Virus record (IMG/VR): IMGVR_UViG_3300029305_003442
DNA length: 64,000 nucleotides
Origin: a virus
Direction: 5' to 3' (one strand)
The notes under the pieces were generated by a model, which was given only the letters and a program-made list of their open reading frames with translations, was not told the origin of the DNA and did no database searches. Made by a program: the position numbers and the translations under genes. Below are positions 20,701 to 45,733 of the stretch, in pieces (the first letter of the stretch is position 1; each line of letters begins with the position of its first letter).

Positions 20701-22605
20701 ATGATTACAAAAGTAACGGAACAAAATTCTGTAAAATATCAAAAATTATTCAGAGAAGCTGAAGAATTATTAAAAAGTACTGGTACTGAAGATATTGTAG
20801 TTGGAGAAACAATTGACGATTTATATGAATATTTTATTGCTTTTCCTTCAATCTTAAATGCGGCCGCTATTAAAGATGCTTCTGATGATAATAAAACTGG
20901 TGATCCTGAATATTACCAAAAGTATTTTACTATATTACCTTTAGATGAACCAGTATTTGAAATTAATGCTGATACTCGTGCGATTACAATTCCACAGCAA
21001 TTTAAAAGTATTGGTGTAACTGGTGATAATATTGCGGAAATTGTTTTCTTTTCTATTGATAGATTCTTTGATGCTGTTGATTTTGGTGCTCCTGAAATTG
21101 AAGCTGTAATTGAATGGCATCGTACTACCGGAGATAATCAAGATACTTATGTTGATAAAGCTTATATAAAAGAATTAACATTAAAAGAAAATAAAGTTTT
21201 AATTGGATGGGTTATTGATGAACGCATTACTGAAGAGCCTGGTACAATTGAATTTGCTGTAAGATTGGTTATGAAAGACGAAAAAAATGAAATTATTTAT
21301 AGTTTTAGTACATCAGCAGCAAAAGTAAATATTAATAAAACACTTAATTTTTATCCAGATGCTACTGAAATTGATAATACGGCGATTGCGCAAGTTAAAG
21401 CTCGTATTTTAGCAACTAATTCGCCTGATGTATCAAATGAAAATTCTTTAAATGCTCCAGCATATAATATTATAGAAGACGATGGTGATGAAATATCTAC
21501 AAATATTGATTCTATGGTTGATGATGAAGGAAAACCATTAACATATTCTTATACTTCTACTAATGATTTTTATGCCGATTTTAATGATGAAGATAATGCT
21601 TTAGTAGTAAATGTTAAAGCTAGAAGTACTAATGGTAATGGAGATGAACGTCTTCTTTATCGTTGGTTTAAATGGAATGAAAATGATAAAAACTGGCAAG
21701 CTTATCCTATTGGAGCTGTTGAAGCAGTTGATGGAAATCAAACTATTATTGATTCTATTGGTAAATTTAAATGTGTAGCAATAGATAATGTTGGTATTCG
21801 TAGAGCGACAAAAGATAGCCAAATTCTTCATATTCTTGGTCCATAGAAACCAGAAGTTAAAACTGCTGATGAAGGAGTTTATACTTCTATAATTTTAACC
21901 AATGAAGCAGATGGTATGGAATTAAATGTAAAACCAGGTCATGAAAATGATGTATTTTATGTTGATAATTATGATATTAATAATAAAACAAAATTATCTT
22001 ATGAATGGAAAAAGAGCAATAATCTTAATGATACTATTAAGATTGATATTGAAGATGCTTATGAACAAAAATATCAAGCAAAAGAAGAGGGCTATTATTA
22101 TGGTTATGCTATAACTTAGCGTAATTTAAAAATTGAAACATCTGATGAAGCTAGTATATATCGTGTAACTAAGCCTTTAATTCAACCTACTTTATAGTAT
22201 ACTGTATTAGGATTATAGAATGGTACTAATGGTAAAATTGGAGAAACTATTGAAATTGATTTTAGCACTTATGATGATGAAGGCAATGTATTAACAACTT
22301 ATGCTTATGATACAATTGATTATTAGTGGTATCGTTCTATGAATCAAAATCAAGGTGATAGTAGTTATCAAAAAGTTGAAGATGAAGACTATAATCAAGG
22401 ACATCTTACAGCTACTGATAGAAAAATTTTATTTACACCAAAAACTCCAGCAGCTTATAGAATTAAATTATTGGTTAAACGTAATGGATAGAGTATTCCT
22501 GAAAAAGATTTTGATGAAAATGATTCATCCACTTGGCCAATGTTAAATCAATTATAGACCAATGGAACTTATGATGAATTAACTATTTCAATGAGCATAG
22601 ATTAA
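20701..22605 (+). CDS. Virion-associated protein (634 aa) with Ig-like C-terminal region
   Basis: ATG 20701; 381 codons TAG-free, then frame 1 continues through 8 TAG (track ORF 21916-22119 same frame) to TAA 22603-22605. Confidence 0.55.
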
Positions 22606-22627
22606 TCAATAAAGGAGGTTATAAGAT

Positions 22628-23242
22628 ATGATAACCAATCCGGTTGATTATTACAATAAAATATTATAGATAAAAGATTTAAATAAACCTCAATATGCGC
22701 TTTTGCTTCCAACAGATGAAACAATTTATGATATTGATTTATCTACAAGAGAAGTTAAAGCACCTAAATTTTTAAGTTTACACAAAGATCATTATGCGGA
22801 AACCATTTATTTTAAAGTTGATAGATTTTTTGATAATATGGATTTAGCAGATACAGTTTGTACTATTTAGTATGTAAATGATGGTGTAAAAAAACTTACA
22901 GGTGAAGCTGATGCGGGTCGCATTTATTTAGTACCATTTTTTGATATTTTTACATATCGTGATGACAATAAAATGCTTATTCCTTGGCAAATTAGTGGTT
23001 TAGTAGCTAGAGCTCCTGGTAATATAACCTTTTCATTTAGATTTTATAAATTAAATGAAACAGGAGATTTTATTTATTGTTTAAATACTTCTCCTGCTAC
23101 AAGTAAAATTCTTAATGGATTAGATTTAAAACTTCCAGAAAATGATGAAGGTTATATGGAAGCAGGAATTGTAGATGATATTTATCATTAGATAGATATT
23201 GTGAGTAAAGCTACTGATTTATATTGGATTGAAGTTGAATAA
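22628..23242 (+). CDS. Hypothetical protein (204 aa) sharing a DRFFD-containing N-terminal domain with the preceding gene (paralog)
   Basis: AAAGGAGG SD; ATG 22628; frame 2 with track ORF 22973-23191; TAA 23240-23242; AETIYFKVDRFFDNMDLADTV vs AEIVFFSIDRFFDAVDFGAPE in 20701 gene. Confidence 0.5.
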
Positions 23243-23246
23243 AAAT

Positions 23247-23275
23247 TTGACATAAATAAAAATTTATGTTATAAT
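23247..23275 (+). promoter_or_regulatory. Perfect consensus sigma-70/sigma-A promoter
   Basis: TTGACA (23247-23252) - exactly 17 nt - TATAAT (23270-23275), 35 nt upstream of ATG 23310. Confidence 0.6.
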
Positions 23276-23309
23276 AATATAAAAGAAAAGAAAGGTTAGG
23301 TATTTAATT

Positions 23310-23615
23310 ATGGCAACTACTTTAACAATTAATTATTCTGTAAATGGAGTAGAAAAGAATCTTATATTAACTGAAATTACTAGATGTTCTGAAGATTTTA
23401 AATCTGAATATGTTTCTTTAAATATTTCTTGTAATGATATTGTTGAAAATAGTATTTTAGGTGAATTAATGAATTCTATAATTTCTGATATCATTTTTAT
23501 AGAAGACTCTGAAACTACCACTTTTACTAATTATACTCGTCTTTATAATATTAATCGTTCTTATAAAGGTGAAGGTTCTTCTTTAACTTTTAATTTAAGA
23601 GAATATTTTAATTAA
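23310..23615 (+). CDS. Hypothetical protein (101 aa, no TAG), first gene after consensus promoter
   Basis: Track ORF; TAA stop. Confidence 0.5.
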   Translation: MATTLTINYSVNGVEKNLILTEITRCSEDFKSEYVSLNISCNDIVENSILGELMNSIISDIIFIEDSETTTFTNYTRLYNINRSYKGEGSSLTFNLREYFN

Positions 23616-23651
23616 TTTATTAAATTAAAATGAATAAAGGAGGAATAATTT

Positions 23652-24821
23652 ATGGCAGCTGATGATAAAATATTAGCAACGTAGATTAGTACAAATTCTT
23701 CTTCCTGGTATCAAAGATTAAGAGCTATTTAGGCAAATAATAAAACAGGTATAGGCGGGTCTGCTTTATAGCAGACCGCCGACCCTGGTATCACTTCAGG
23801 AACGAAGATGACAGCAACACATATTAATAATTTTATTAATGCTTTAACAGCTTTAAAATCAAATGTATTTTTAGCTTATGCGGATTGGACTAATTATACT
23901 CCTTCTACTGTTTCTAGTGGTGGAAAAGCTAATGCTTCTACTACATAGACTAAAATTAATAATATGTTAACATCACTAGAAAGTATATGTAGTAATTGTT
24001 AGACATATAGTACAAATAGTTATTCTAATACTTGTTCAAATAATGCTACAACTAGTTATTCAACCTATTCGGAAAGTATTGATAAATATAATTATTCTAA
24101 TACATGTAAAACTACTTATAATTCCACAGAATCTACAAACTCTACTTGGAGTGAAAGCTGTAAAACAACTTCTAATAGTACTAATAGCTATTGTTCTGAT
24201 GCTAATTGTAGCGCTTATAGCGAGAATGAAACTTGTGCAGAATTTTATGTTGGTAATAGCACTTATTCTACAGATAGCACTAGCTCAAATTCTACTTATG
24301 GAGTTGGAGATTCTACTTAGGCAACAGATGCTACTTCTGTTTGTGCTACTTTATCAACTTATAATGATGAAATATCTTATAGTACAGATTGTAGTGATGG
24401 TTGTTGGGATTGTACTTTTCATTCTTATTGTCCTGCAGCTGAAGTAGCTACTTATAGCGTCGGAGAGTGTTCAACTAATGCTACTAATTCTGAAAATTCA
24501 ACAGAAGGAGTTTGTAGCACTTGTAGTACTAATTCTACTGATTTTTATTGTAATGAAAACTCTTGTACTGAACATACAAATAGAGGTACATATTCAAATC
24601 ATTCACAATGTAGTACTTATGGAAAAAACAGTACATATAATGATACTTGTCAAACTTGTGAGACTGATTCAACCACATCAAATACAACTTATACTTAGTC
24701 AAATTCTACATATACTAACACTAATGATGGTTATAGTACATATTCAAAAAAAGCTACATATGGAACATATACTAATACAAGTGGTAATTCAACATATTAG
24801 ACTTATACGGTAAAAAATTAA
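23652..24821 (+). CDS. Cys/Ser/Thr/Asn/Tyr-rich low-complexity protein (389 aa, 22 Cys, 9 in-frame TAG); candidate substrate of adjacent radical-SAM enzymes
   Basis: AAAGGAGG SD; ATG 23652; frame 3 verified codon by codon to TAA 24819-24821 with only TAG interruptions. Track ORFs 24043-24447 and 24478-24813 are other-frame shadows of this low-complexity gene. Confidence 0.6.
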
Positions 24822-24851
24822 TTGAAATGAGATAAAGGAGAAAATATTTTA

Positions 24852-26210
24852 ATGTTACAAGATAGAGAAACAATTATTTTATATACTACAGCAGTATGTA
24901 ATTTAAATTGTACTTATTGTTTTATTGATAAAAATCCAAGTTTAAAAAAGATAGATCAATGGCTTGATGATAGTTTTTTAAAAACTCCAGATTATTATTT
25001 TGAATATGCAAAAAAAGCCGTTTTACAAGAAAAACTAAAAGAAGTATAGATTTGGGGTGGAGAACCTTTTTTGGGTATGCATAGAGCCTATGCAACAATA
25101 GATAAATTTATTAATTATTTTCCAAATTTAAAAAATTTTATGACTTCTACAAATTTTGTATCTCATTGTTTTTTTGAAGAATTTTATGGACTTCTTGATA
25201 TTTTTAGAAAGCATCCAAATAGAAATTTTACATATAGTTTATAGTTATCATTAGATGGTGTAAAGGAAATAAATGATATTAATAGAGGTAATGGAGTTAC
25301 TGATCGTTTTATTATTAATTTTGAAAAATTTGTTAAAGAATTACAAACTTTATTACCAAACAATTTAACATTAAAAATGCATTTAAAGCCCACTATTGAT
25401 ACAAATTCTTTGAAAAAATTATAGACTAAAGAACAAGTTTTTGAACAATTTATCTTTTTTGAAAGCTTCAATGAAGTATATTTGAAATATAATAAAAAAA
25501 ATAATTTACTATTTTCACTTCCAATTCCTAATACAGCTTGCCCATCTCCTCATACTCAAGAAGATGGAATAATGTTTGCAAATTATTGTAAAATAACAAG
25601 AGAGCTTGAAAAAGAAAATAAAAATAATAAAATTTTTAAATTTTATAATAATATTACAAGCTTTACTCCAAGAAGAAAAATTCAATATGACAAACTTTCA
25701 TTATCAGGATATTGTCAAGGTCATTGTGGTAATGGAAAAAGAGCTATTGGTCTTTTACCTAACAATATGGTTTCTTGTTGTCATAATGGTTTTGTTGATT
25801 TGCTAGCTGAATATAAAAAGAATGTATTAACAAATAGTGAACATATGGATAATGTTACTATTGAAAAAAGTTTATTTAAAAATAAACGTAATACTTTAAT
25901 TTTCCCTTATGATAGTAAAGAATTTGAAATGTATCAAAAACAATTAGAAGTTTTTTATCAAAATGATGATACTGCCAAAATTTCTAATTGTGCTTCTTTA
26001 ATTAAATTATTGGCTGATTTTGAACAAATTGATAAAAAATATCAAGATAAAAAAGAAGCTGTTAAAGGTGCTTATTTTATTTTTAATACTACATCATATT
26101 GTGTTAGAGATAATTTAGGTGTGACTGGAAGCATCTATATGTATCCTGTTGGTTTAATTAAATTATTGCTAAATGGAGCTAGAGAATATATTGAGGAAGG
26201 ATGTAATTAA
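24852..26210 (+). CDS. Radical SAM / SPASM-domain enzyme #1 (452 aa, 3 in-frame TAG)
   Basis: AAAGGAG SD; CNLNCTYC (CxxxCxxC) at residues 16-23; IWGGEPFL; SLDGVKEINDINRG (anSME-like). C-terminal Cys cluster CPSPH...CQGHCGNGKRAIGLLPNNMVSCCHNGF consistent with SPASM/twitch auxiliary cluster. Track ORFs 24852-25049 and 25482-26210 share frame 3. Confidence 0.75.
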
Positions 26211-27599
26211 ATGGCAAAGTGTTTAAATTTTTAGGAAGAAAAAGATGTTATTTTATGGTCATTAATTAATGATACATTTGGAAGACTTTTTTCTAAAGAA
26301 AAAAAAGAAGATATTGAACATGATATGGGGTTAGAAATTTATATAACCCCTGAATGTAATTAGAATTGTTCTTATTGTTATTTATGTAAAAATGGTGATG
26401 AACTTTATCCTAAAGAATTAAGAAATCCTACAATAATTTTAAATAATTTAAAAATTATGTTAGATTATTGTATTGATAATAATTGGAATCCTGGAAGATT
26501 TGATTTTTTTTCTGGAGAAATTTGGGATACTGATTTAGGTTATAATGTTTTAAGCATTACAGAAGAAGCAATAGAAAGAGGTTTTCACCCTAGACTAATT
26601 GTAATTCCATCAAATTTTAGTTTTATTTTAAATGAAGAAGCTAAAAATAGAGTTGAAAAATTTATGGAAAAATGTAGACAATTTAATATAAAGCCATGTT
26701 GGTCTTGTTCTAATGATGGTTTATTGTTAGATTTAGAGACAAGACCATTTAATTCAGATGAATTAAATGCAAAAAAAGATACTGAAGATTATTATAAAAA
26801 ATTATTTGAATTTTGTAAAAAATGGAATTTAGGTTTTCATCCAATGGTGGCAGCACACGGAATTGAAAAATGGTCAGAAAATTTTTTATGGTGGATGTCA
26901 GAATTAAAGAAATATAAATTTGAAAGAAATTCTTCAATAATGTTTTTAGAAGTTAGAAACGATGATTGGACAGATGATAAAATTTATCATTATTTAAAAT
27001 ATTTAAATACTAGTATTAATTATTTAAATGATGAATGTATTAATTTAAATACATTGTCTTTTGAAGATTATGTTAGAAAAACTAATAAAAATATTAAATA
27101 CAATTATACACCTGTTATTTTAGAAAAATCAAGTTTATAGCCTGGATGCACTATTCATAGATCTTTAGTTATTCGTTTAGGTGATTTAGCAATAGTTCCT
27201 TGTCATAGAACTTCTTATGAAGAATTTATTATAGGACATTTTAAAGTAGAGAATAATAAAATTATAGGAGTTACAGCTAAAAATATTCAAATAATGAATT
27301 AGGTATGGCTAAATAATATGAGTGGTAATGCTAAATGCACTAATTGTCCTTATAGCAATTACTGTATGAAAGGATGTTATGGTTCTTAGTTTGAATCTAC
27401 TGGAGAATTATTATATCCAATAGAATCAGTATGCAATTTATATAAAGCAAGAGCAATATTTATTTTTTATAAATATTTAAAAATGGGTATTTATAGAGAA
27501 GATAATCCCGAGGATAAAAAATATTTTGATTTTATTCAATCAATTAAAGATACGAAGGAGTTTAAAAAATGGTACAAAATTGTTTAGGAATTGATTTAA
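26211..27599 (+). CDS. Radical SAM / SPASM-domain enzyme #2 (462 aa, 4-5 in-frame TAG)
   Basis: ATG immediately after upstream TAA (translational coupling); ITPECN(Q)NCSYCY CxxxCxxC; C-terminal CTIHRSLVIRLGDLAIVPCH...AKCTNCPYSNYCMKGCYG SPASM-like Cys motifs; frame 3 with track ORF 26457-27140; TAA 27597-27599 if TAG 27585 is read through. Confidence 0.7.
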
Positions 27600-28168
27600 T
27601 TAATATTTATGAAAATCTTATCATAAATGGATTAAATGTAGAATTAGCAAAAGATATTGAAAAATATTTGATTTATTTTTTAGACAATAACACTAATGAA
27701 AATTAGTTATTATTATATAATTTATTAAATATTTTAAAACGTCAATAGAATACATCAATTCTTCTAAATTTTTTAATTCAAGAAGTTGAATTAAAGTTAT
27801 TAAGATTAAGTTTTTCTAATAATGATATAAAAAATAATAAAGATTGTTATAATATTTCATCTTGTCAAAAAAATGAATCTAAAGAAGAATTAAAGAAAAT
27901 TTTAAAAGTAACTAATAAAGATTTATTCCCTCCAAAAGGGACTACAACTCGTATTATTAATAAAAGAAAAGAAGAAAATGAAGAACATGAATATGTTTTA
28001 GAGATAGATGATCAAGGTAATGTTTTAGAAATTTTAGAACATTATATAACAAAAAATGATGCAGATTCTATTGATATATTAAATGATTCTCCTTTAAGCA
28101 AACTTAAAGAAAAATATCTTAAAGAAGATAAAGAAAATAATTCTTTAACAGAAAATGATTTAGAATAA
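27569..28168 (+). CDS. Hypothetical helical protein (199 aa, 2 TAG) within rSAM cassette
   Basis: AAGGAG SD 27555-27560; ATG 27569; frame 2 to TAA 28166-28168. Confidence 0.45.
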
Positions 28169-28193
28169 TATTAATAATTTAAATATTTCTAAA

Positions 28194-29270
28194 ATGGGAT
28201 TAGGAATTATGCGTCATAATTCTAATCAACAATATACAAAACAACTAATAGAATATGCTTTAAATAATAAAATTAATTATTTTGAAGCTTGTGATTTCTA
28301 TTTACAAAACGCTTGTGAAATACGTCTTGGGGATGCTTTAAAATAGCATCCTCGGACTTCATATAAATTATGTGATAAACTTCCATTATCTACAATTCCT
28401 TATTTTATTCAAAAAAATAAAAATTGGAATTTAAATGATTATTTTAATAATCAATTAGCAAAATGTAGAACTGATTATTTTGATGTTTATTTGATTTAGG
28501 CTTTAGATGAACGTAATTTTAATTACTTGGAAAAATATCAAATTATTGATTTCTTTTTAAAACAAAAAGAACAAGGAAAAATTAAATTATTGGGTTTTTC
28601 TTTTCATGGAAAAGTTGATATTTTAAAAAAATTATTAGAAATGAAATGTTGGGATATCGTTTAGTTTCAATTAAATTATTATGATTGGATTTTAGGTGAG
28701 GCGAAAGAATTATATTTTTTAACAAAAGAATATGATTTACCTATTATTACAATGGGACCAACTAAAGGCGGATTATTAATAAATAATTTACCTAAAAAAT
28801 CATTAGATAGATTAAAAGAAAACAATATTAATCCAGTCTATTTATGTTATTCTTTTTTAGAAACTTTAGACAACGTTAAAATTATTTTATCAGGAGCAGA
28901 AACTTATGAAATGATTAAAGATAATTTAAATTATTTTGAAAATGAATCTCATAAATTAACTCCAGAAGAGTGGTAGCATATTAAACAAAATATTCAAGAT
29001 TATCAAGAATAGAGTTTAATTCAATGTACGGGATGTCGTTATTGTGTTCAAAGATGTCCTGCTAATTTACCAATAGATAAAATTTTTAAAGAATATAATA
29101 ATTTTATTCAATCTAAAGATTTATAGTCAAGAGAATTTTTATATTAGAATATTCATAGTTCTAACTCTACACAGAATTGTAAAAATTGTGGTCAATGTGT
29201 AAAAATTTGTCCGCAACATTTAAATATTCCAGAAATTTTTCATAAACAAATTTTCCCAGTAAGGAGATGA
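28194..29270 (+). CDS. Aldo/keto-reductase-family oxidoreductase fused to C-terminal 2x[4Fe-4S] ferredoxin domain (358 aa, 8 TAG)
   Basis: ATG 28194 in frame 3 with track ORF 28752-28976; C-terminal CTGCRYCVQRCP and CKNCGQCVKICP ferredoxin motifs; TGA 29268-29270. Confidence 0.6.
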
Positions 29271-29274
29271 AAAA

Positions 29275-29685
29275 ATGGTAGTATCTGAATTAGTAGCTAC
29301 AATTTTTCAAGTTTGTATAATTCCATTATTGGGTGTATTAACTACTTTTTTTGTAAAATGGGTTAATTCCAAAAGCGCAGAAATCTCAAATAAAATTGAT
29401 GATGAAACATTAAATAAATATTTAAATATGCTTACTGAAACAATTAATACTTGCGTTTTAGCAACCAATTAGACATATGTTGAAAGTTTAAAACAACAAG
29501 GAAAGTTTGATGCGGAAGCGCAGAAAGAAGCATTTAATTTAACTTGTTCAGCAGTAATGGATATTTTAAGTGAGGACGCAAAAGAATATTTAACTTCTGC
29601 TATTGGAGATTTACAAATTTATATTACAAAGAAAATTGAAGCTGAAGTACATACAAATAAAGTTACACCTTGTGTAAATCAATAA
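29275..29685 (+). CDS. Putative holin (136 aa; N-terminal TM helix then amphipathic region), LL-H/phiLC3-holin-like
   Basis: AAGGAG SD; MVVSELVATIFQVCIIPLLGVLTTFFVKW TM segment; one in-frame TAG 29470-29472; TAA 29683-29685; last gene before terminator. Confidence 0.5.
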
Positions 29686-29695
29686 AATAAATATA

Positions 29696-29735
29696 GGGGA
29701 ACCTTTAGTATAATCTAAAGGTTCCCCTTATTTTT
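29696..29735. terminator. Bidirectional rho-independent terminator between convergent holin (+) and LytTR regulator (-) genes
   Basis: GGGGAACCTTT-agtataatct-AAAGGTTCCCC with T-runs on both sides (TTATTTTT on +; TATATTTATTTT on -). Confidence 0.6.
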
Positions 29736-29742
29736 GTTTATA

Positions 29743-30447
29743 TTAAATTCTATTATAAGTAAGCCAACGTTCACGAATTAAATCATGAGATTTTTTGGGA
29801 AAATATAATACTTCATCATTTTCAAAAGTTAAATGGTCAGTATCAATAATCTTAATTTCACTTAAATTAATCAATAAACTTGGTGCTAAAAATAAAAATT
29901 GCGGATGTTGGTTCAATGGAGTTATTGCTTTTTCAAAAGATGAGCGCAATGACTAACCATCAAACATTGTTCCATTTTTTAAATGATAACATAAACAACG
30001 TTTTACAATGTTAATATAATTAACTTGACTTGAGCGTATTCTTCTTTCACCTTCCGCAGTTTTAATTACCAAACTATCTTCTCTTATCTCTTTTTTAATT
30101 ATATTAAATAATTCAAACAATTCTTCTTTTTCTATTGGTTTTAAAAAATAATGATCTGCATGCACTTTATAAGCAGGATAAGCGAGAGAAGGATCTTCTC
30201 CAATAAAAATAAAATAACTATTTGGGTCTATTTTATCCATGCGATGACTTAACTCATATAGATTTTCTGATGAATCAGTGTCCATAATATAAACATCAAA
30301 ACTTGCAGGAACAACAAGTAAATCTTCTGATTTATCAAAAATTGATACTTTTGCCACAGACTTAGATTCTATTAAATATTCTTGAATCATCTCACGCAAT
30401 TCATTTAAATATGTTTTGTTGTCATCATAAATAGCAATAGAGAGCAT
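29743..30447 (-). CDS. LytTR-family two-component response regulator (REC + LytTR DNA-binding domain; AgrA/ComE-like), orphan; one in-frame TAG at 29953-29955
   Basis: Track ORFs 29953-30447 and 29743-29949 are the same frame separated by TAG+1 codon; REC features (IAIYDDN, VYIMDTD, YFLKP) and LytTR pattern (IKTAEGERRIRSSQVNYINIVKRCLCYHLKNGT...FLFLAPSLLINLSEI); AAGGAGG SD. Confidence 0.7.
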
Positions 30448-30482
30448 ATTTAAACTCCTCCTTTAAAATTTTTTACAATATT

Positions 30483-30511
30483 ATTATAACATAAATTTGT
30501 GAGAAAATCAA
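30483..30511 (-). promoter_or_regulatory. Consensus sigma-A promoter for LytTR regulator gene (member of repeated promoter family)
   Basis: Minus strand TTGATT-17-TATAAT (fwd aatcaa 30506-30511 ... attata 30483-30488). Confidence 0.5.
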
Positions 30512-30759
30512 ATTTTTTTGTGTAAAAAGTGTAAAAAATTTTAATTTTTGAGTATTTGATTTTTAAATTTACTTTTTGACATTCGGATTTTAAAAATAAA
30601 ATTGTAATTTTGAAAAATTGAATAAAAATTGTAAGGATGAAAAATCAGACAAAAAATGTGTGAGTGTTTCTTGTTTAAAAATCTGAAACAATTTTTATAT
30701 AGTAATGGAAGGGTAAGAGAAAAATAAAAAAAATGAATAAATACCTTGGAGGTGAATAT

Positions 30760-31236
30760 ATGAATTATCAATATAATCAGTAGCAGGTGAGTCCACCGCA
30801 GAATTAGACGACTCAGCAGTATTCTTACCAACGACAAGTTCCTTATACTTCTGGAACTTGGAATGCGAGAGTCAGACCGGTTTCTTCAATTGAAGAAGTA
30901 AGAGCATCTTCAATTGATTTTGATGGCTCAATTTTTTATTTCCCAGATGTTGCTAATAAAAAAATCTATACTAAATTTATTAATTTAGATGGCTCTGTGG
31001 CAATTAATGTATATGAGTTAAAAGAAATGCCAACAGGTTAGGCAGCAGATTCATCTTACATTACAAGAGAAGAATTTGAAAACGTAATTATGTAGTTAAA
31101 AATGATGTATAATAATTCTTCTGCGCCTTCTACTCCAATAGAAGAATAGCAATAGGTATAGTAGTAGATGAATAGTAATTAGTTTGCGGCACCACCCGCA
31201 CAATAGCAACATAATGTTTCGCCATTACAATTTTAA
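30760..31236 (+). CDS. Gln-rich protein (158 aa, 11 TAG codons clustered in poly-Q tracts)
   Basis: GGAGGTG SD; ATG 30760; frame 1 verified to TAA 31234-31236; GAA-TAG-CAA-TAG-GTA-TAG-TAG-TAG-ATG and CAA-TAG-CAA runs. Confidence 0.55.
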
Positions 31237-31532: not shown

Positions 31533-32327
31533 ATGTTTAATTCTAATGGTTACAGTTTGGCAGATATCGTTGCCGCAACAGGTGGCGGTAGAGAGAATTG
31601 CGGCGGCTTCGGCGGCTGGGGCGGAGATGGATGGTGGATTATCCTCTTATTCTTGCTCTGGGGTAACAACGGCTGGGGCGGCAATCAAGGTGGACGTGGA
31701 ACAGTTCGTGAAGAAATTGCTTATGGTTTTGATATGAACGGTTTAGAAAATAGCGTCCGTGGTGTTCAGCAAGGTATTTGTGATGGTTTCTATGCCATGA
31801 ATACTGGTATGTTAAATGGATTTAGTAACATTCAAAATACTCTATGTCAAGGTTTCTCTGGTATCAATCAAGGTACAGCTCAGTAGACATTTGATTTATC
31901 TACTCAGTTACATGGTATGGCAGCTGATAATGCGGCTTGTTGCTGCGAAACTCAGCGCGCTATTGAAAGAGGATTTGCTGAAACCAACTATAACATGGCA
32001 ACTCAAGCTTGCGATACTCGTAGAGCAATTGCTGATAGCACTCGTGATATTATTGACAGTAATAACGCAGGTGTTCGTTCTATTTTAGATTTCTTAACTC
32101 AGGATAAGATTGCTACTCTTACCGCAGAAAATCAGAGTCTAAAATTCGCAGCTTCTCAGGCAGCTCAGAACGCTTTCATTGCAGCTAATCAGGAAGCTCA
32201 AACCGCAGAACTTATTCGCAGACTTGATACCCCATGTCCTATTCCCGCTTATGTAGTTCCTAATCCTAATTGTTGCTATCCATCTTATGGATATGGGTAT
32301 GGCAACACTGGATGCTGCGGTGGTTAA
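31533..32327 (+). CDS. Gly/Trp-rich membrane protein with Cys-rich C-terminus (264 aa; GGFGGWGGDGWWIILLFLLWGNNGWGG ... CCYPSYGYGYGNTGCCGG); GC-rich codon usage
   Basis: AAAGGAGGG SD; track ORFs 31533-31886 and 31917-32327 same frame joined by one TAG. Confidence 0.55.
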
Positions 32328-40466: not shown

Positions 40467-40692
40467 TTATGTCAATAGCCTCATCTTCATATTCATATTT
40501 TAATTGATTAGGTAATTCATTACGATAAAAAGTATATTTCCTTTTACAGGTAGGACAAAAATAAACATACTGTTCAGGATAAGTACATAAAACTTTACCA
40601 GTACTTTTTATTTCTTCATTACAATCTTCACAATAAAAGCTATCTATATAGATAGCTTTTACATATCGTCTTTTAATTTTCATCTTCTTCAA
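40453..40692 (-). CDS. Small zinc-ribbon protein (79 aa)
   Basis: CEDC...CPTC pairs. Confidence 0.4.
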   Translation of the reverse strand: MKKMKIKRRYVKAIYIDSFYCEDCNEEIKSTGKVLCTYPEQYVYFCPTCKRKYTFYRNELPNQLKYEYEDEAIDINEEV

Positions 40693-43180
40693 TTCCTCCT
40701 TGATAACGTTCCGAAGTTAATTTTAAATCAGTTTTATTTACAATTTCTTCAATTTTATACAACTGATGACCTGGCGTACTATTGTATTTTTTAACAATAA
40801 AATTATCTCCAGAACGAATACCCATAACCGCAATCATATTACCACGATTAAACCAAGATTTTTCTACAATCTTTTTAGTTCCATCAGGATTTTTGATAGA
40901 AATTTGTTTATCAAATAAAGAAAAATATTCTTTTCTAAATTTAACTTCTACAACTCCATGAGTTGTTAATAACGTTACTGTGCTTTTAACCTTATTTTTT
41001 GCTATACAGGTTCCGCAAATTTTATGAAGTTTAAACATATGAATTTCTTTTCCTCCACGAGCAAACACTTGGTCTACTATTGGTTCTTCTGGCAAAGCAA
41101 AGAAATCAACAAATCCATATTTATTATGATTTACATCAATTAATTCATGTTCGTGATAATAAAAACATAAAACTTCCATCTCCCAAGCAGAAATTGTACC
41201 TGAAGCATATTTCTCCCAATCTTCAAGAAAAACAGCATCATTTATTTTTACTAAGATTTCATCTTTATTTTCATTAATCCATGTTCTAAAAATATCCATC
41301 CAATTTTGATAAATTTTTTCCCATTGCTTAATATTCATAAAGAAAATTGTATCTTTTGTTATAATCAAATTATCACAATGTACTTCAATAAGAAAATTAA
41401 TAGCTCTTTCATCTAATTTATATAATTCATTATTAAATTTACAAATTGCTTTTAAATAACGATTAAATTCATATACTCTTCTTGCTAAAATTTGTTCTTC
41501 AGTTTCAGATGGAAGTAGATTATATTTAATTAATCCACCCATATTTTGTAGAGTAATTCTTTTTTTTCTATCGCAAGTTTCCCAAATATACCAAGCCATA
41601 CAAGTTTTACGTTCCATCATATCATCAAAAGCTCCACCCTTAATCAATGAAATCATAGCTTGCTTGCCTGGATTTACTTTATTCAAAAAATCTCGCGGAG
41701 ATACATAAGGTCTATGTTCAATGATAGATGCTACGACATCATCACCAACATTTAATAATCCTTTTAAACCAAAAAGAATTCTATTGTTCTCAGCATCTGG
41801 CGCAAAGCCATATTTAGATTTATTAATATTTGCTAAACTAACTTTAATACCAGCAGCTTGAATATCACCAATAGCTTTCGCAATTTTACCATAATCAGTA
41901 CTTGCGCCAGCTTCTTCATCAGTTGCGCCACTATTAACAATTAAACAAGCTGTATTCCAATAGATAGGATTAAATTTAGTTGCCAATAAAATTGTTTGAA
42001 TACCAACAAATGAATAAGGTAATGAATGATTTAAACTAAAAGCATATCCAAGTTGTGGAGCGACCGCAACTTCCCAGACATAATCTGCTATATTAGAATT
42101 TCCAATTTTTTCATACACTTGCGCTTTTAATTCCGGAATTTTTGACATCTGTTTTTTTGCTACTATTTTACGAGCAGCGTTTGCTTCACCTAAAGTAAAA
42201 TTAGCAACCTCCATCAAAATTTCCATCATTTGCTCTTGGATAGGACAGCAACCATAATATTTATCACAATGTTTATGCATTAACTCAATCATTTTTTCAG
42301 GCAAATGATTAAATTTCATTTCTTTATCAAAAATATTAATTCCTGATTTTTGAATGCGAGCATATCTATCTTGCTGACTTTCTTTACCTTTTTCAGACAT
42401 AAGTCTCATCATAGCATTTGCGGCAGTCATCTCTAAAGGATTTTGTGGTTTAAGTTTTTTCGCAATTGCTAATCCAACACCACCACTAAACTGAAATACA
42501 TCCAATATATCACCTGCGGCTAAATGATTCCAAATATAATTTTCAGATGTGTCAATTATTTCTGGATGAATATATTTATTATAAGTTTCTCTTAAACCAA
42601 TATTTTCAATTAAATTATCCTCATGTAACATTTCAAAACATTTAATAATTTTATCAGAAACTTCAGTTACAAGAAAATCATATTTAGTATCACCTGCTGC
42701 TTCCGCCGCATGTAAGTCAAAACAAGTAATTAAATCTCCATTTGGTGCTCTCATAAAAGATGCTGTATCAAATGGATTTTTATCATAAAGAATTACACCA
42801 GAAGCATGAATGCCACGTTTATTTACTAATCCCTCTATTGAAATGATAATATCAACCAATCCAGGATATTGATTAACTTCTTTTATAAAAGTTGTAACTG
42901 GTTTTCTATCTTTTTCTTCATCACCATATAATACTTCTGAAATAGACCATAAAAATCCACGTTCTTGAGGAATTAATGATGACATATATTGCGCTACATC
43001 TACATCTATTCCTTCTGGATATTCTTCACTTCTATAACCACGACAAGCTGTAAGAACAGCTGATTTAGTTCCTTCAGTTCCAAAAGTTGCTACCTGAACC
43101 AAACCAAATTCTCCACGTTCTTTACGAATTGCTTCAAAAATCGCTGGTCTTTTACTTGGAGCCAGGTCTATATCAATATC
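40673..43180 (-). CDS. dnaE: DNA polymerase III alpha (DnaE-type) exon 2 (835 aa; polymerase core), begins DIDIDLAPSKR...
   Basis: Reading frame of track ORF 40673-43102 is open upstream to 43180, where DIDID follows the exon-1 motif RFLNKERAELP; RGIHASGVIL palm motif; no TAG. Confidence 0.75.
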   Translation of the reverse strand, partial: DIDIDLAPSKRPAIFEAIRKERGEFGLVQVATFGTEGTKSAVLTACRGYRSEEYPEGIDVDVAQYMSSLIPQERGFLWSISEVLYGDEEKDRKPVTTFIKEVNQYPGLVDIIISIEGLVNKRGIHASGVILYDKNPFDTASFMRAPNGDLITCFDLHAAEAAGDTKYDFLVTEVSDKIIKCFEMLHEDNLIENIGLRETYNKYIHPEIIDTSENYIWNHLAAGDILDVFQFSGGVGLAIAKKLKPQNPLEMTAANAMMRLMSEKGKESQQDRYARIQKSGINIFDKEMKFNHLPEKMIELMHKHCDKYYGCCPIQEQMMEILMEVANFTLGEANAARKIVAKKQMSKIPELKAQVYEKIGNSNIADYVWEVAVAPQLGYAFSLNHSLPYSFVGIQTILLATKFNPIYWNTACLIVNSGATDEEAGASTDYGKIAKAIGDIQAAGIKVSLANINKSKYGFAPDAENNRILFGLKGLLNVGDDVVASIIEHRPYVSPRDFLNKVNPGKQAMISLIKGGAFDDMMERKTCMAWYIWETCDRKKRITLQNMGGLIKYNLLPSETEEQILARRVYEFNRYLKAICKFNNELYKLDERAINFLIEVHCDNLIITKDTIFFMNIKQWEKIYQNWMDIFRTWINENKDEILVKINDAVFLEDWEKYASGTISAWEMEVLCFYYHEHELIDVNHNKYGFVDFFALPEEPIVDQVFARGGKEIHMFKLHKICGTCIAKNKVKSTVTLLTTHGVVEVKFRKEYFSLFDKQISIKNPDGTKKIVEKSWFNRGNMIAVMGIRSGDNFIVKKYNSTPGHQLYKIEEIVNKTDLKLTSERYQGGIEEDEN

Positions 43181-44362
43181 CGTTTATTGGACTATATTTT
43201 TCATAATGACTTACTAAGAGCATTTTACTTCAGTCATTACTAGAACATCTTTCAGACGGTGCTTATCTCCGCCTTACATAAATAGTCTCTACACATTTAA
43301 TCTTATTTTTCTATTTGTTTCCAATAATAGCCTTTATATAAAGTTCCATTTTTAATCGCTTTATCTAATTGAGTGTGTCCTTTCATTCCTAAGAATTGTA
43401 AGACTGCGGTTTTAGCATTAAATATTTGAATTAAATTGTAATTTTCATCATACATTTCAATTCGTTTTCCATTTAATGCTTGATTACCACTTTTACCATA
43501 CATACCATTTTTTTCGCCAGCGGTTTTACCTTTACTATTTACAGACATTTTCTACTTAGACTCTTCTGTATGTTTTTTACCATACATTCCATTATTAGAA
43601 CCTTTTGTTTTTTCACTCATTTTTTGTTTAAACTCTTCAGTTCTATAAGGAGAGTTGTCTCTTTCAAATTCTGCCCAATAAGATAAAAATGCTTTAGTTT
43701 TTTCACTATGGTATTTTCCATACATTCCATTATTCTTACCACGATTTACTTCACTTAATTTTCGGCACAAAACTTCTTTTTCTTCTGGTGTATATCCTGC
43801 GGTAGTGTTTCCTCCACAACCGCCCTCATGAATATTATAAAACAATGGATTTGATGTGGCATTATATAAGGCAATAAATTGTTTTTCTTTTTCACTATTT
43901 TCTAAATCATTTTTAGAAACAAATAAAATGGACTTTGTAAAACAGTCTTTTCCATATTTGGCAATTTCTTTTTTCAATTCTTTTCCGCTGCCTAAATATG
44001 AATCATCTAATTCTCCATAATGTTTTCCGATATATTTCATACCATTTATATTATTAGTAGTTAAATAAATATAATGTTGTTTCATTTAAACAACCCCCTT
44101 TCATATATATTTAACTTTTAGAATTAGACAATGACCTGACTTTGTCCAAGATTTTTAGCACGGTATTCCCAATCTAACCTTTTTTAGGTCATAGGGTCTC
44201 TTAGTCAGTTGATTCGCATTTATATAACATAAATCTTATTTCGCTGATACCGTTAGCCTGCGGTTACTCGTCTCGCCGGTCGGATGACCGGGCCGCCGCA
44301 GACACCCATTAAGCAATGGTTAATGTTCTTTTTTTACAACTGCCCAATATCAATATTAGACT
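43181..44362 (-). ncRNA. Group I self-splicing intron (about 1182 nt) in dnaE, carrying a homing-endonuclease ORF
   Basis: 5' exon ends ...GAACUGCCU (44363); intron-internal guide GGGCAGUU (44345-44338) pairs with AACUGCCU giving U.G at the splice site; intron ends with G (43181) before exon-2 GAUAUUGAU; GC-rich structured segment 44150-44330 and 43200-43300 flanks the ORF. Confidence 0.65.
43303..44085 (-). CDS. Intron-encoded GIY-YIG homing endonuclease with NUMOD3-like repeats and C-terminal DNA-binding region; in-frame TAG at 43552-43554
   Basis: YIYLTTNNINGMKYIGKH GIY-YIG motif; repeated NNGMYGK(K/Y)H; track ORFs 43552-44085 and 43303-43548 are in the same frame separated by TAG + one codon. 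Confidence 0.7.
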
Positions 44363-45733
44363 AGGCAGTTCGGCTCTCTCTTTATTTAAAAATCTCCAAT
44401 AAGGGAGACCCCAACGAATTGGGTCAAGTTGAGTAATACCAAGCAAATAATTTGAAAGAAAACCGGTCGCAGAACCTCGTCCAGGTCCAACAATTGAACC
44501 GCATTCCCAAAACAAATCAATATAATGTTTAAAAGTATTGAAATAAGCGAAAAGACAATCATCAAGTTTTTCTCCAATAAACTTAATTACATCTGCCTCA
44601 ATTTCAATACGATTAATATATTCTTCATTAAATAAATTTTTATTTATTAATTCTTGTAGACATTCATTAATCCAATATCTTTCTTGAGATTCATCAGATA
44701 TTAAAAGTGATTTAATAATCGGCCAATTAGTATCTAATTCATCTTTTAATGAATTATTAATACCAAAATAAGATAAAGTTTTAGGATAATCTTTTACTTT
44801 TACTTTTGGAATAATTTGTTTTCTTTCAATTGAATAAAATTCAATTTTATTTTTTATTTCATTTGTATTATTTAAAATCCATTCTGAAATATCATCATCT
44901 TGATAAGCATATGTTAATAATTCTTTAGCTTCATTATAATCCATTAAACGAGCAAATTCATAAAATGAATCAACTTCTCGTTCTCCACCTTTAGAATTTA
45001 AATAAGCTTTATGAACCCATCTATCTTGACTTGTATAATAATGAGCATCAGTTCCTGCGACTAATTTAATTCCAAAAGATTGAGAAATAGAGTATAATTT
45101 TTTATTAACCAATACTTGGTCTTTTGTAGTTGCTGGGGCGCATTCTAAATAGAAATCATCACCAAATAATTCAAGACAATAATTAATAAAATCAATTATT
45201 TTTGAATAATATACTTTCATTGTTTCCATGTCTTGAACTTCTTCAGCTAAACAAAATTGTAATAAATTTGATGATAATTCTCCACCAAGACAAGCTGTTG
45301 TAGCTATTAAATGTCCTTTATATTTATTAACAATAGTTGATAATTCTTTTTTTAAAACTGGAACTCTTTCCATTTTTCTATCAACATATAAATTATACCA
45401 AGCTATTGAACTTAATTCTTTTAATGCCATATAACCAATTTTATCTTTGGCAATTAAAATAAAGTGATAATATTTTTGACCACTACTTCTATCATCTGTT
45501 AAATAAATTTCATTACCAAGTGCAATTGTAAAATCTGGATTTGTCTCTCTCAATTTCTTAGCATATTGATTTACTTCCATGTGCGCAGATAAACATTCAT
45601 GGTCTGTAATTGCTATACCGTTTAAACCCAATTCAATTGCTTTATCAATTAAATCTTTAGGTCTATTTATACAATCAAGTAAGCGAATATTTGAATACAT
45701 TGTATGATTATGACAATTAAAATAACTGTTCAT
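44363..45733 (-). CDS. dnaE: DNA polymerase III alpha (DnaE-type) exon 1 (457 codons; PHP domain)
   Basis: MNSYFNCHNHTMYS...GIAITDHE PHP motifs; WRFLNKERAELP at exon end; track ORF 44309-45733 runs on into intron for 17 codons. Confidence 0.75.

Follow-up and report, generated by a model that had tools for sequence, protein, structure and literature searches.

Radical S-adenosylmethionine (rSAM) enzymes with a SPASM domain, acting as maturases, are, to our knowledge, one of the main sources of new peptide chemistry, and the characterised examples are almost all bacterial and act on short peptides. Among the described systems, QhpD cross-links a protein subunit, QhpC, and the CXXX-repeat/TIGR04115 system is, as far as we know, defined in silico in TIGRFAMs/NCBIfam, with its function untested. 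The SPASM signature, Cx9-15Gx4C...CxxCx5Cx3C...C, binds two auxiliary [4Fe-4S] clusters. Here we describe a late-gene cassette in a 64,000-nucleotide stretch of viral DNA (IMG/VR record IMGVR_UViG_3300029305_003442, the whole of which we call the window) that encodes a 389-aa partner protein followed by two rSAM enzymes, rSAM1 and rSAM2. The three genes are a real co-inherited unit, and a substrate-enzyme relation between the partner and the two rSAMs is, judged from the sequences, the best reading. The cassette would then be of a known kind, an rSAM/SPASM maturase with a ribosomally made substrate, and what appears new is the enzyme and precursor families, the twin layout, the protein-scale substrate and the phage-specific spread. 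We found no paper on this gene set, on phage rSAM/SPASM pairs, on CXXX-repeat systems or on TIGR04115.

The comparison drew on 83 loci (referred to by L numbers) from viral, metagenome and genome collections, in which open reading frames (ORFs) were called with TAG as a sense codon and families were extended with iterative profiles. Co-inheritance was counted over 47 non-redundant rSAM1 loci, each denominator being the loci with enough flanking sequence. A partner-family gene lies upstream of rSAM1 in 40 of 43 loci, nearly always directly, and rSAM2 lies directly downstream in 38 of 39; it is this adjacency that makes the three genes a unit. Reciprocal look-ups that started from partner homologs regained the rSAM pair on every contig of sufficient length. 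Conservation of the Cys-rich gene in protein space and together with the rSAMs, a test set beforehand, is thus borne out.

Such enzymes had been thought rare in phages, which does not hold for uncultured ones: a collection of 5.8 billion proteins contains more than 240 rSAM1 clusters (44-86% identity, all ~450 aa, on contigs up to 277 kb), as well as 34 partner homologs, eight of them on contigs equal in size to rSAM1-bearing ones. Among deposited phage genomes, blastn with the cassette gave a single chance-like match of 43 nt and tblastn with rSAM1 gave none. Single-protein queries of IMG/VR returned no confirmed relatives, and an alignment query was used instead. The matches in the genome collection are metagenome-assembled contigs binned with Clostridia, Bacilli, Lachnospiraceae, Faecalibacterium and Roseburia. 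The family is widespread in uncultured Firmicutes gut phages and appears specific to them, on contigs of ~25-277 kb.

The window is AT-rich (~27% GC), and the standard code fragments its + strand genes. When TAG is read as sense, ORFs of 100 codons or more cover 68.6 kb in place of 47.1 kb, and the genes form a continuous series without gaps. Reassigning TGA gives a far smaller gain in coverage; the gain from TAA was rejected as an artefact of AT-richness. TAG codons are clustered in the + strand genes (positions 43-33775), and the - strand genes, which serve replication, hold few. Alignment columns directly support Gln as the meaning of TAG in this phage, since the TAG sites fall in columns that are nearly always Gln in rSAM1 and rSAM2 homologs: residue 131 of rSAM1 aligns with Gln in 53 of 53 homologs and residue 191 in 47 of 53, and residue ~389 of rSAM2 in 27 of 30. 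No tRNA gene was detected within the 64 kb, so the TAG suppressor tRNA to be expected in a recoded phage must sit outside the window. With TAG read as Gln, positions 23247-29728 form a single operon with a promoter, seven genes and a terminator, listed here together with the ORF of highest TAG density in the window:

23247-23275, + strand: predicted sigma-70-type promoter, consensus match TTGACA-17-TATAAT with extended -10 TG
23310-23615, + strand: first operon gene, ORF of 101 aa, 0 TAG
23652-24821, + strand: partner and presumed substrate, ORF of 389 aa in the N-domain family, 8 TAG
24852-26210, + strand: rSAM1, 452 aa, 3 TAG (PF04055)
26211-27599, + strand: rSAM2, 462 aa, 6 TAG (SPASM, TIGR04085)
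27569-28168, + strand: accessory protein, 199 aa, 2 TAG, overlapping the 3' end of rSAM2
28155-29270, + strand: AKR-ferredoxin, 371 aa, 8 TAG (PF00248 + Fer4_9)
29275-29685, + strand: holin, 136 aa, last gene of the transcription unit (phrog_13712)
29695-29728, both strands: bidirectional intrinsic terminator, 14-bp stem with 7 GC pairs and T-runs on each strand
30733-31236, + strand: ORF of 167 aa, 11 in-frame TAG (6.6% of codons), 0 Cys

The perfect promoter that the original prediction placed at the head of the cassette is there, as the sole 12/12 match in 22500-31000, and so is the terminator after the holin, which the operon has in common with a convergent LytTR-like gene. The proposed tandem coupling of the rSAM genes can be read at 26208-26213, where the TAA stop of rSAM1 directly abuts the ATG start of rSAM2. 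This layout, in which genes that overlap or abut share a single promoter and a single terminator, supports a single maturation unit. All members named earlier (the partner, the two rSAMs, the 199-aa protein and AKR-ferredoxin) do need TAG read-through, with counts of 8, 3, 6, 2 and 8 where 9, 3, 4-5, 2 and 8 had been given. The idea that this need ties the cassette to a recoded late phase fails, for the cassette is also found in TAG-free, standard-code relatives (L003, L016 and L040) and is therefore not intrinsically tied to recoding.

rSAM1 scores 34 bits against PF04055 (Radical_SAM; cutoff 29.5) and has the canonical motifs ascribed to it, with C16, C20 and C23 in CNLNCTYC followed by GGEP, SLDG and NRG. 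The three cluster Cys, GGEP, SxDG and RG are conserved in an alignment of 33-53 homologs, together with exactly four further Cys (C246, C292, C310 and C417). Both enzymes had been credited with auxiliary-cluster Cys motifs, and for rSAM2 the full seven-Cys SPASM stands: it scores 31.4 bits against TIGR04085 (cutoff 27), its cluster motif is C49/C53/C56, its SPASM Cys are C313, C331, C376, C379, C385, C389 and C408, and all ten are invariant in 31 of 31 homologs, as is G324. For rSAM1 a full SPASM does not stand, as it has no match to TIGR04085 and lacks the seven-Cys signature; its four-Cys set fits one auxiliary cluster, probably of a twitch-like or partial SPASM type. L003 matches the twitch model NF033640 at 39-44 bits (cutoff 170). 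In rSAM1 the cluster motif begins at residue 16, and in rSAM2 at residue 49, leaving no N-terminal room for the recognition element (RRE) of maturases for peptides that ribosomes make and that are modified after translation (RiPPs), in agreement with what had been said of both. Similarity between the two enzymes is confined to 19 residues around the cluster loop, which rules out a recent tandem duplication; by this comparison they are old, distinct families.

The nearest solved folds of rSAM1 are ChlB, CteB, anSME and TigE, all of them peptide or protein maturases. In NCBIfam, both rSAMs match many models of named RiPP maturases, among them DynA, YhhB, PapB, SCIFF, QhpD and the CXXX-repeat family, at 15-38 bits, where the cutoffs are 225-855. 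Because both enzymes stay below the cutoffs of all curated maturase families, the chemistry is not assignable by homology. Their families and nearest folds nevertheless uphold the suggestion of RRE-free enzymes that resemble protein or peptide maturases, and the sequences support placing both in this type and outside every named maturase family. PHROGs labels them simply 'radical SAM domain-containing protein'.

These scores also bear on whether the two enzymes are housekeeping or auxiliary rSAMs, such as an anSME, an NrdG-like activase, a QueE- or viperin-like enzyme or one that hypermodifies DNA. Phages are known to carry NrdG, QueE and DNA-modifying rSAMs, which counts for this explanation, and weak generic matches to viperin and MoaA cores were seen. 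A paper on rSAM enzymes in thymidine hypermodification (PMC8989533) counts for it as well. On the other side, the anSME model TIGR03942 has no match to the window enzymes, and L003 paralogs reach only 32-33 bits against its cutoff of 349; the sulfatase motif C/SxPxRxxxxTG occurs in no ORF of the window, and an anSME/sulfatase identity was dropped for want of both the motif and support from profile models. The cassette lies in the late structural and lysis module, whereas the replication module holds its own NrdD and L001 a separate NrdG. Family cutoffs and context thus largely refute a housekeeping role, no housekeeping orthology was found, and we consider it very improbable. A defence or anti-defence role was likewise set aside, a weak generic match to the pVip core being its sole sign.

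The partner is the Cys/Ser/Thr-rich protein of 389 aa that had been described, with 21 Cys in the whole protein instead of 22, and every peptide quoted from it (CSDANCSAYSENETC, DCSDGCWDCTF, VCSTCSTNSTDFYCNENSCTEHT) can be read there. It has no match in Pfam, NCBIfam, PHROG or PADLOC. In the window protein an N-domain (~aa 1-113, ending in SLESIC) is followed by a tail rich in Thr, Ser, Asn, Tyr and Cys and by a C-terminal YTV; family-wide, the corresponding traits are a helical N-domain of ~110 aa, a hypervariable repeat tail rich in Asn, Ser, Thr and Gly, and a C-terminal [YF]x[VI]. The N-domain carries the motifs SWY.RLR.IQ, L.SN.FL and SLE.IC.N in this order and is predicted to be a helical bundle, with a pLDDT (predicted local distance difference test) of 78 in the model of a close homolog. 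Its profile finds 149 clusters (at 50% identity) among 1.84 billion proteins, nearly always at the N terminus. Partners range from 150 to 470 aa, and their tails are of low complexity, with ~55-61% Asn/Ser/Thr/Gly. Tail types vary from lineage to lineage: the window and L004 have NST/Tyr/Cys units, L005, L017, L040 and L045 have x[ST]NGx pentads, and L034, L035 and L039 have FSQNS units.

Set against the window proteins, five relatives show N-domain and rSAM1 identities of 70/70, 56/61, 56/59, 50/64 and 44/65%, and their partner tails drop to 38-25%. Comparable identity of N-domain and enzyme beside a variable tail is the pattern that a constant recognition element with a variable core would produce. 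N-domain/repeat-tail genes can also be multiple. Four stand in tandem 5' of a partial rSAM1 in L050 (253-4614), two occur in L040, and L016 has one on either side of the rSAMs, so that some phages carry several presumed substrates.

Cysteine is distributed unevenly in this family. Among 112 representatives the tails hold 0-25 Cys (median 5, mean 4.2%), eight have none and 23 have two or fewer. The closest relative, whose rSAM1 is 70% identical, has half the partner Cys, and L034 and L035 have Cys-free tails and keep both rSAMs. Cys-richness is not a conserved trait of the partner family, and thioether formation cannot be the universal chemistry because loci with Cys-free tails retain both enzymes. 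The tripeptide NST, on the other hand, is the only strongly non-random motif that many tails share: it occurs 317 times in family tails against 68 expected from shuffling, is present in 81 of 138 tails and is often followed by Tyr, Phe, Trp or Cys. Its extended forms include TNST, NSTY, CSTN and NSTC; the last two are enriched k-mers, as is TCST. In the window tail NST is found 10 times (1.3 expected) and NST plus an aromatic residue six times (0.2 expected), whereas the thioether motifs Cxxx[DE] (PapB-type) and NxxC stay at the level expected from composition.

These results shift the claim of the original prediction that the partner resembles a Cys-rich thioether substrate. It would require sacti-/ranthipeptide- or QhpD-type synthases to cross-link the Cys of a virion or secreted protein to carbons of neighbouring Asp, Glu, Ser or Thr. 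The 21 Cys of the window partner, the mean Cys content of the tails and the presence of CSTN, NSTC and TCST among the enriched k-mers are in its favour, as are the SPASM half of rSAM2, whose best matches are PapB (E = 2.5e-9) and the SCIFF maturase (E = 4.3e-8), and the CXXX-repeat systems that adjoin the cassette in some relatives. Cys-poor and Cys-free tails beside intact enzyme pairs, the halving of Cys in the closest relative and the unenriched thioether motifs speak against it, and so do QhpD, SCIFF and PapB scores of 15-37 bits where the cutoffs are 340-453. As a general account we think it unlikely; thioether chemistry may apply to one of the two rSAMs, or to Cys-rich members only.

Comparison with individual systems points the same way. 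Ranthi- and sactipeptide maturases (PapB, CteB, SCIFF) and QhpD have cutoffs that the window enzymes miss about 10-fold: against QhpD (TIGR03906, cutoff 453) they score 17.8 and 15.3 bits, and SCIFF (TIGR03974, 32.5 bits, cutoff 425) and PapB (NF047865, 36.8 bits, cutoff 340) match the SPASM region of rSAM2 only. The window rSAMs further differ from these in being RRE-free, in a partner family in which Cys is dispensable and in the lack of enriched thioether motifs. For the triceptide or cyclophane enzymes (3-CyFE; ChlB, XyeB), XyeB and YhhB scores are 16-30 bits against cutoffs of 445-450, and none of XyeB (TIGR04496), YhhB (NF041707) and GrrM (TIGR04261), with cutoffs of 310-450, is reached. 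Triceptide precursors are, as far as is known, short peptides, in contrast to the 150-470 aa of the window family, and some partner tails are very poor in aromatics. The Hxs system (HxsB and HxsC) is alike in encoding two different rSAMs with a short-tandem-repeat target, and rSAM1 and its paralogs match HxsB and HxsC weakly; the scores are 16-32 bits against cutoffs of 268-370, the partner has no HxS repeats, and Hxs is found in a bacterial and not a phage setting.

The CXXX-repeat system is alike in that an rSAM/SPASM maturase gene stands beside a long, low-complexity, repeat-rich and Cys-containing target gene, and in three relatives it lies directly beside the twin-rSAM cassette (L003 6490-9699, L008 5702-8587 and L080 4353-7255; the L003 and L080 contigs are 277 and 188 kb). 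The L003 maturase scores 433.7 bits against TIGR04115 (cutoff 350), and the target shows strict CxxxC periodicity with up to 52 Cys in 243 aa, matching PF27846 in L080. These phages thus pair rSAMs with long repeat proteins. The window has no CXXX-repeat module, and its cassette is distinct: rSAM1 scores 24.4 bits against TIGR04115, the partner has neither CxxxC periodicity nor a match to TIGR04117 or PF27846, there are two enzymes instead of one, and the 110-aa N-domain is not part of CXXX targets. Of the traits in the generic definition of a RiPP, those of gene context are present (40/43 adjacency, constant N-domain, variable tail), and no protease is encoded.

We therefore lean, with fair but not high confidence, towards a RiPP-like maturation operon of phages that works at whole-protein scale, with a handle-like N-domain, a multi-site tail and two rSAMs. 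The 389-aa partner would be the substrate, its helical N-domain of ~110 aa serving as a constant, leader-like recognition handle and its hypervariable repeat tail, in which Tyr, Phe, Trp and Cys are scattered among abundant Asn, Ser, Thr and Gly, as a multi-site core. The co-translated rSAM1, with one auxiliary-cluster site, and rSAM2, with two auxiliary clusters, would act on the tail, probably as a complex with the 199-aa protein as a putative adaptor. Each would abstract hydrogens from the tail, giving many intramolecular cross-links or side-chain modifications at short repeated motifs; candidate links are aromatic-to-C-beta C-C bonds of the cyclophane type and, where Cys is present, Cys-to-carbon thioethers. 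The AKR-ferredoxin fusion may be an optional, dedicated supplier of electrons to the Fe-S clusters. Scans with Pfam, NCBIfam and PHROG found neither a leader protease nor an exporter in the cassette, so the modified protein probably stays full length, either built into the tail-distal region of the virion or freed at lysis.

Several points weigh against this maturation operon. Gene context is the sole source of the substrate link, the top score against a curated maturase is 37.7 bits against cutoffs of 225-855, and the structure models were built on close homologs of the window proteins (P0001 and P0121). The tails yielded no target motif shared by all of them, NST being present in 81 of 138, and beyond Asn, Ser and Thr no residue is universal in them (Cys 0-25, aromatics down to 2%). 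One locus, L069, has the rSAM pair and no detectable N-domain gene within 6 kb up- or downstream. The cassette also sits at the junction between tail-fibre and lysis genes, where unrelated cargo genes are known to accumulate. In the window it is preceded by large genes of tail, baseplate and fibre-like type, and in distant standard-code relatives by genes for two tail proteins, one of them a minor one, and for a baseplate wedge. This position fits a virion-distal component and does not decide the fate of the product, because the junction also commonly takes cargo.

Some of these points suit a different account, in which the rSAM pair has its target elsewhere, be it a small molecule, a protein of the host or a different protein of the virion, and the partner is a structural or adhesive protein co-inherited in the late module. 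The cassette always follows baseplate and tail-fibre genes, the partner tail resembles hypervariable surface proteins, and the N-domain has no leader-like match; the missing protease and exporter and the L069 locus agree with it too. This account has difficulty with a 40/43 adjacency that persists across backbones of 25-277 kb, both standard and recoded, although other flanking genes are not conserved. It would also have to explain why N-domain and enzyme show similar degrees of identity from one relative to the next and why the enzymes' nearest folds are all peptide or protein maturases. We judge it quite improbable and prefer the partner as substrate. If so, a further step, which we put forward as a long shot, is that the twin rSAMs densely cross-link the hypervariable NST/Tyr/Cys repeat tail of a protein attached to the virion and so make it a fibre that resists proteases and binds to the host or to mucus in the gut; the protein would be anchored near the tail tip via the helical N-domain or the C-terminal [YF]x[VI] strand. 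In a variant, the product may be a phage-made giant RiPP that is released at lysis and acts on competing bacteria.

The remaining genes of the operon are less constant. Neither the 101-aa nor the 199-aa protein has a match in Pfam, NCBIfam, PHROG or PADLOC. Homologs of the former hold the equivalent place in none but the closest relatives (L001, L002 and L004), and L083 has an ORF of 100 aa there, matched by position and size. In the 199-aa protein, a helical region at the N terminus (LIQEVELKLLRL) is followed by an F.LP..G.T ... ID..G.V motif and an acidic tail. A word-seeded search found only the protein itself, and neither the family profile against PDB nor each aligned member against Pfam gave anything significant; a divergent family member stands at this position in at least 18 of 29 loci. 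The AKR-ferredoxin is, as had been proposed, an aldo/keto reductase (AKR; PF00248, E = 7.5e-25) fused to a 2x[4Fe-4S] ferredoxin (Fer4_9, E = 9.7e-11), which contains CTGCRYCVQRCP and CKNCGQCVKICP. Present in only 7 of the 19 related loci with enough downstream sequence, it is not a constant member of the cassette, and we regard it as an optional accessory with a presumed role as electron donor. The holin is correctly identified (phrog_13712, E = 1.1e-31 across residues 13-131; a single hydrophobic segment lies near the N terminus). Its adjacency to the cassette is confined to the nearest relatives: it is found at the equivalent position in L001 and not in most other relatives.

Near the cassette in five relatives lies a conserved pair of Cys-containing proteins of ~280 and ~295 aa (L006 5290-7001, L007 9567-11331, L008 14439-16155, L039 6839-8574 and L080 13105-14821), with motifs such as FGNFQFC.WDGGR and AICPPGCPYRKEHY. 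It accompanies AKR-ferredoxin in L006, L007, L008 and L080 and occurs without it in L039; four members scanned against Pfam gave no match, and the pair is absent from the window.

Directly 5' of the operon, the + strand genes at 20701-22605 and 22628-23242 have an N-terminal motif in common (AEIVFFSIDRFFDAVDF, ETIYFKVDRFFDNMDL), which suggests that they are tail-fibre-like paralogs sharing an attachment region; in L083 (630 and 204 aa) and L082 (542 and 205 aa), genes of similar size precede the cassette. Convergent with the holin on the - strand is a response-regulator/LytTR-like gene (29743-30447; phrog_8810, E = 2e-20, with weak Response_reg and LytR matches), which L001 also conserves (E = 5e-59). 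Immediately beyond the holin/LytTR pair, the + strand at 31533-32327 encodes a second Cys-rich late protein, a Gly/Trp/Cys-rich protein of 264 aa with 12 Cys (CCC and CC runs), one hydrophobic segment and a match to phrog_16490 (E = 7e-57). An ORF of 327 aa with 14 Cys stands at the corresponding position in L001 (15153-16136), corresponding by position. In the replication module, a DNA polymerase III alpha-like gene (40673-45733, - strand) is apparently split into parts of 474 aa (44309-45733) and 770 aa (40673-42985), and the ORF of 260 aa between them (43303-44085) could be an inserted mobile element.

Overall, the cassette has the look of a system, phage-specific and so far undescribed, that cross-links an entire protein by chemical means. 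Its core is compact, three genes for a helical-handle/repeat-tail protein and two unrelated rSAMs, and it acts, if at all, on a protein of 150-470 aa with a fast-evolving repeat core. All parts of this defined operon are known and TAG-to-CAG recoding suffices for expression, which makes it testable, and the relatives supply a phage context for the CXXX-repeat system, which is known in silico only. If the maturation operon is real, RiPP-type biochemistry would gain a new pair of enzymes and a new family of precursors, and it would follow that phages spend late-gene capacity and Fe-S/SAM chemistry on post-translational cross-linking. Should the product prove to be a virion fibre, this would be the first RiPP-type radical chemistry to build a structural or adhesion component of a phage, with the fast-evolving tail as an enzyme-matured determinant of specificity.

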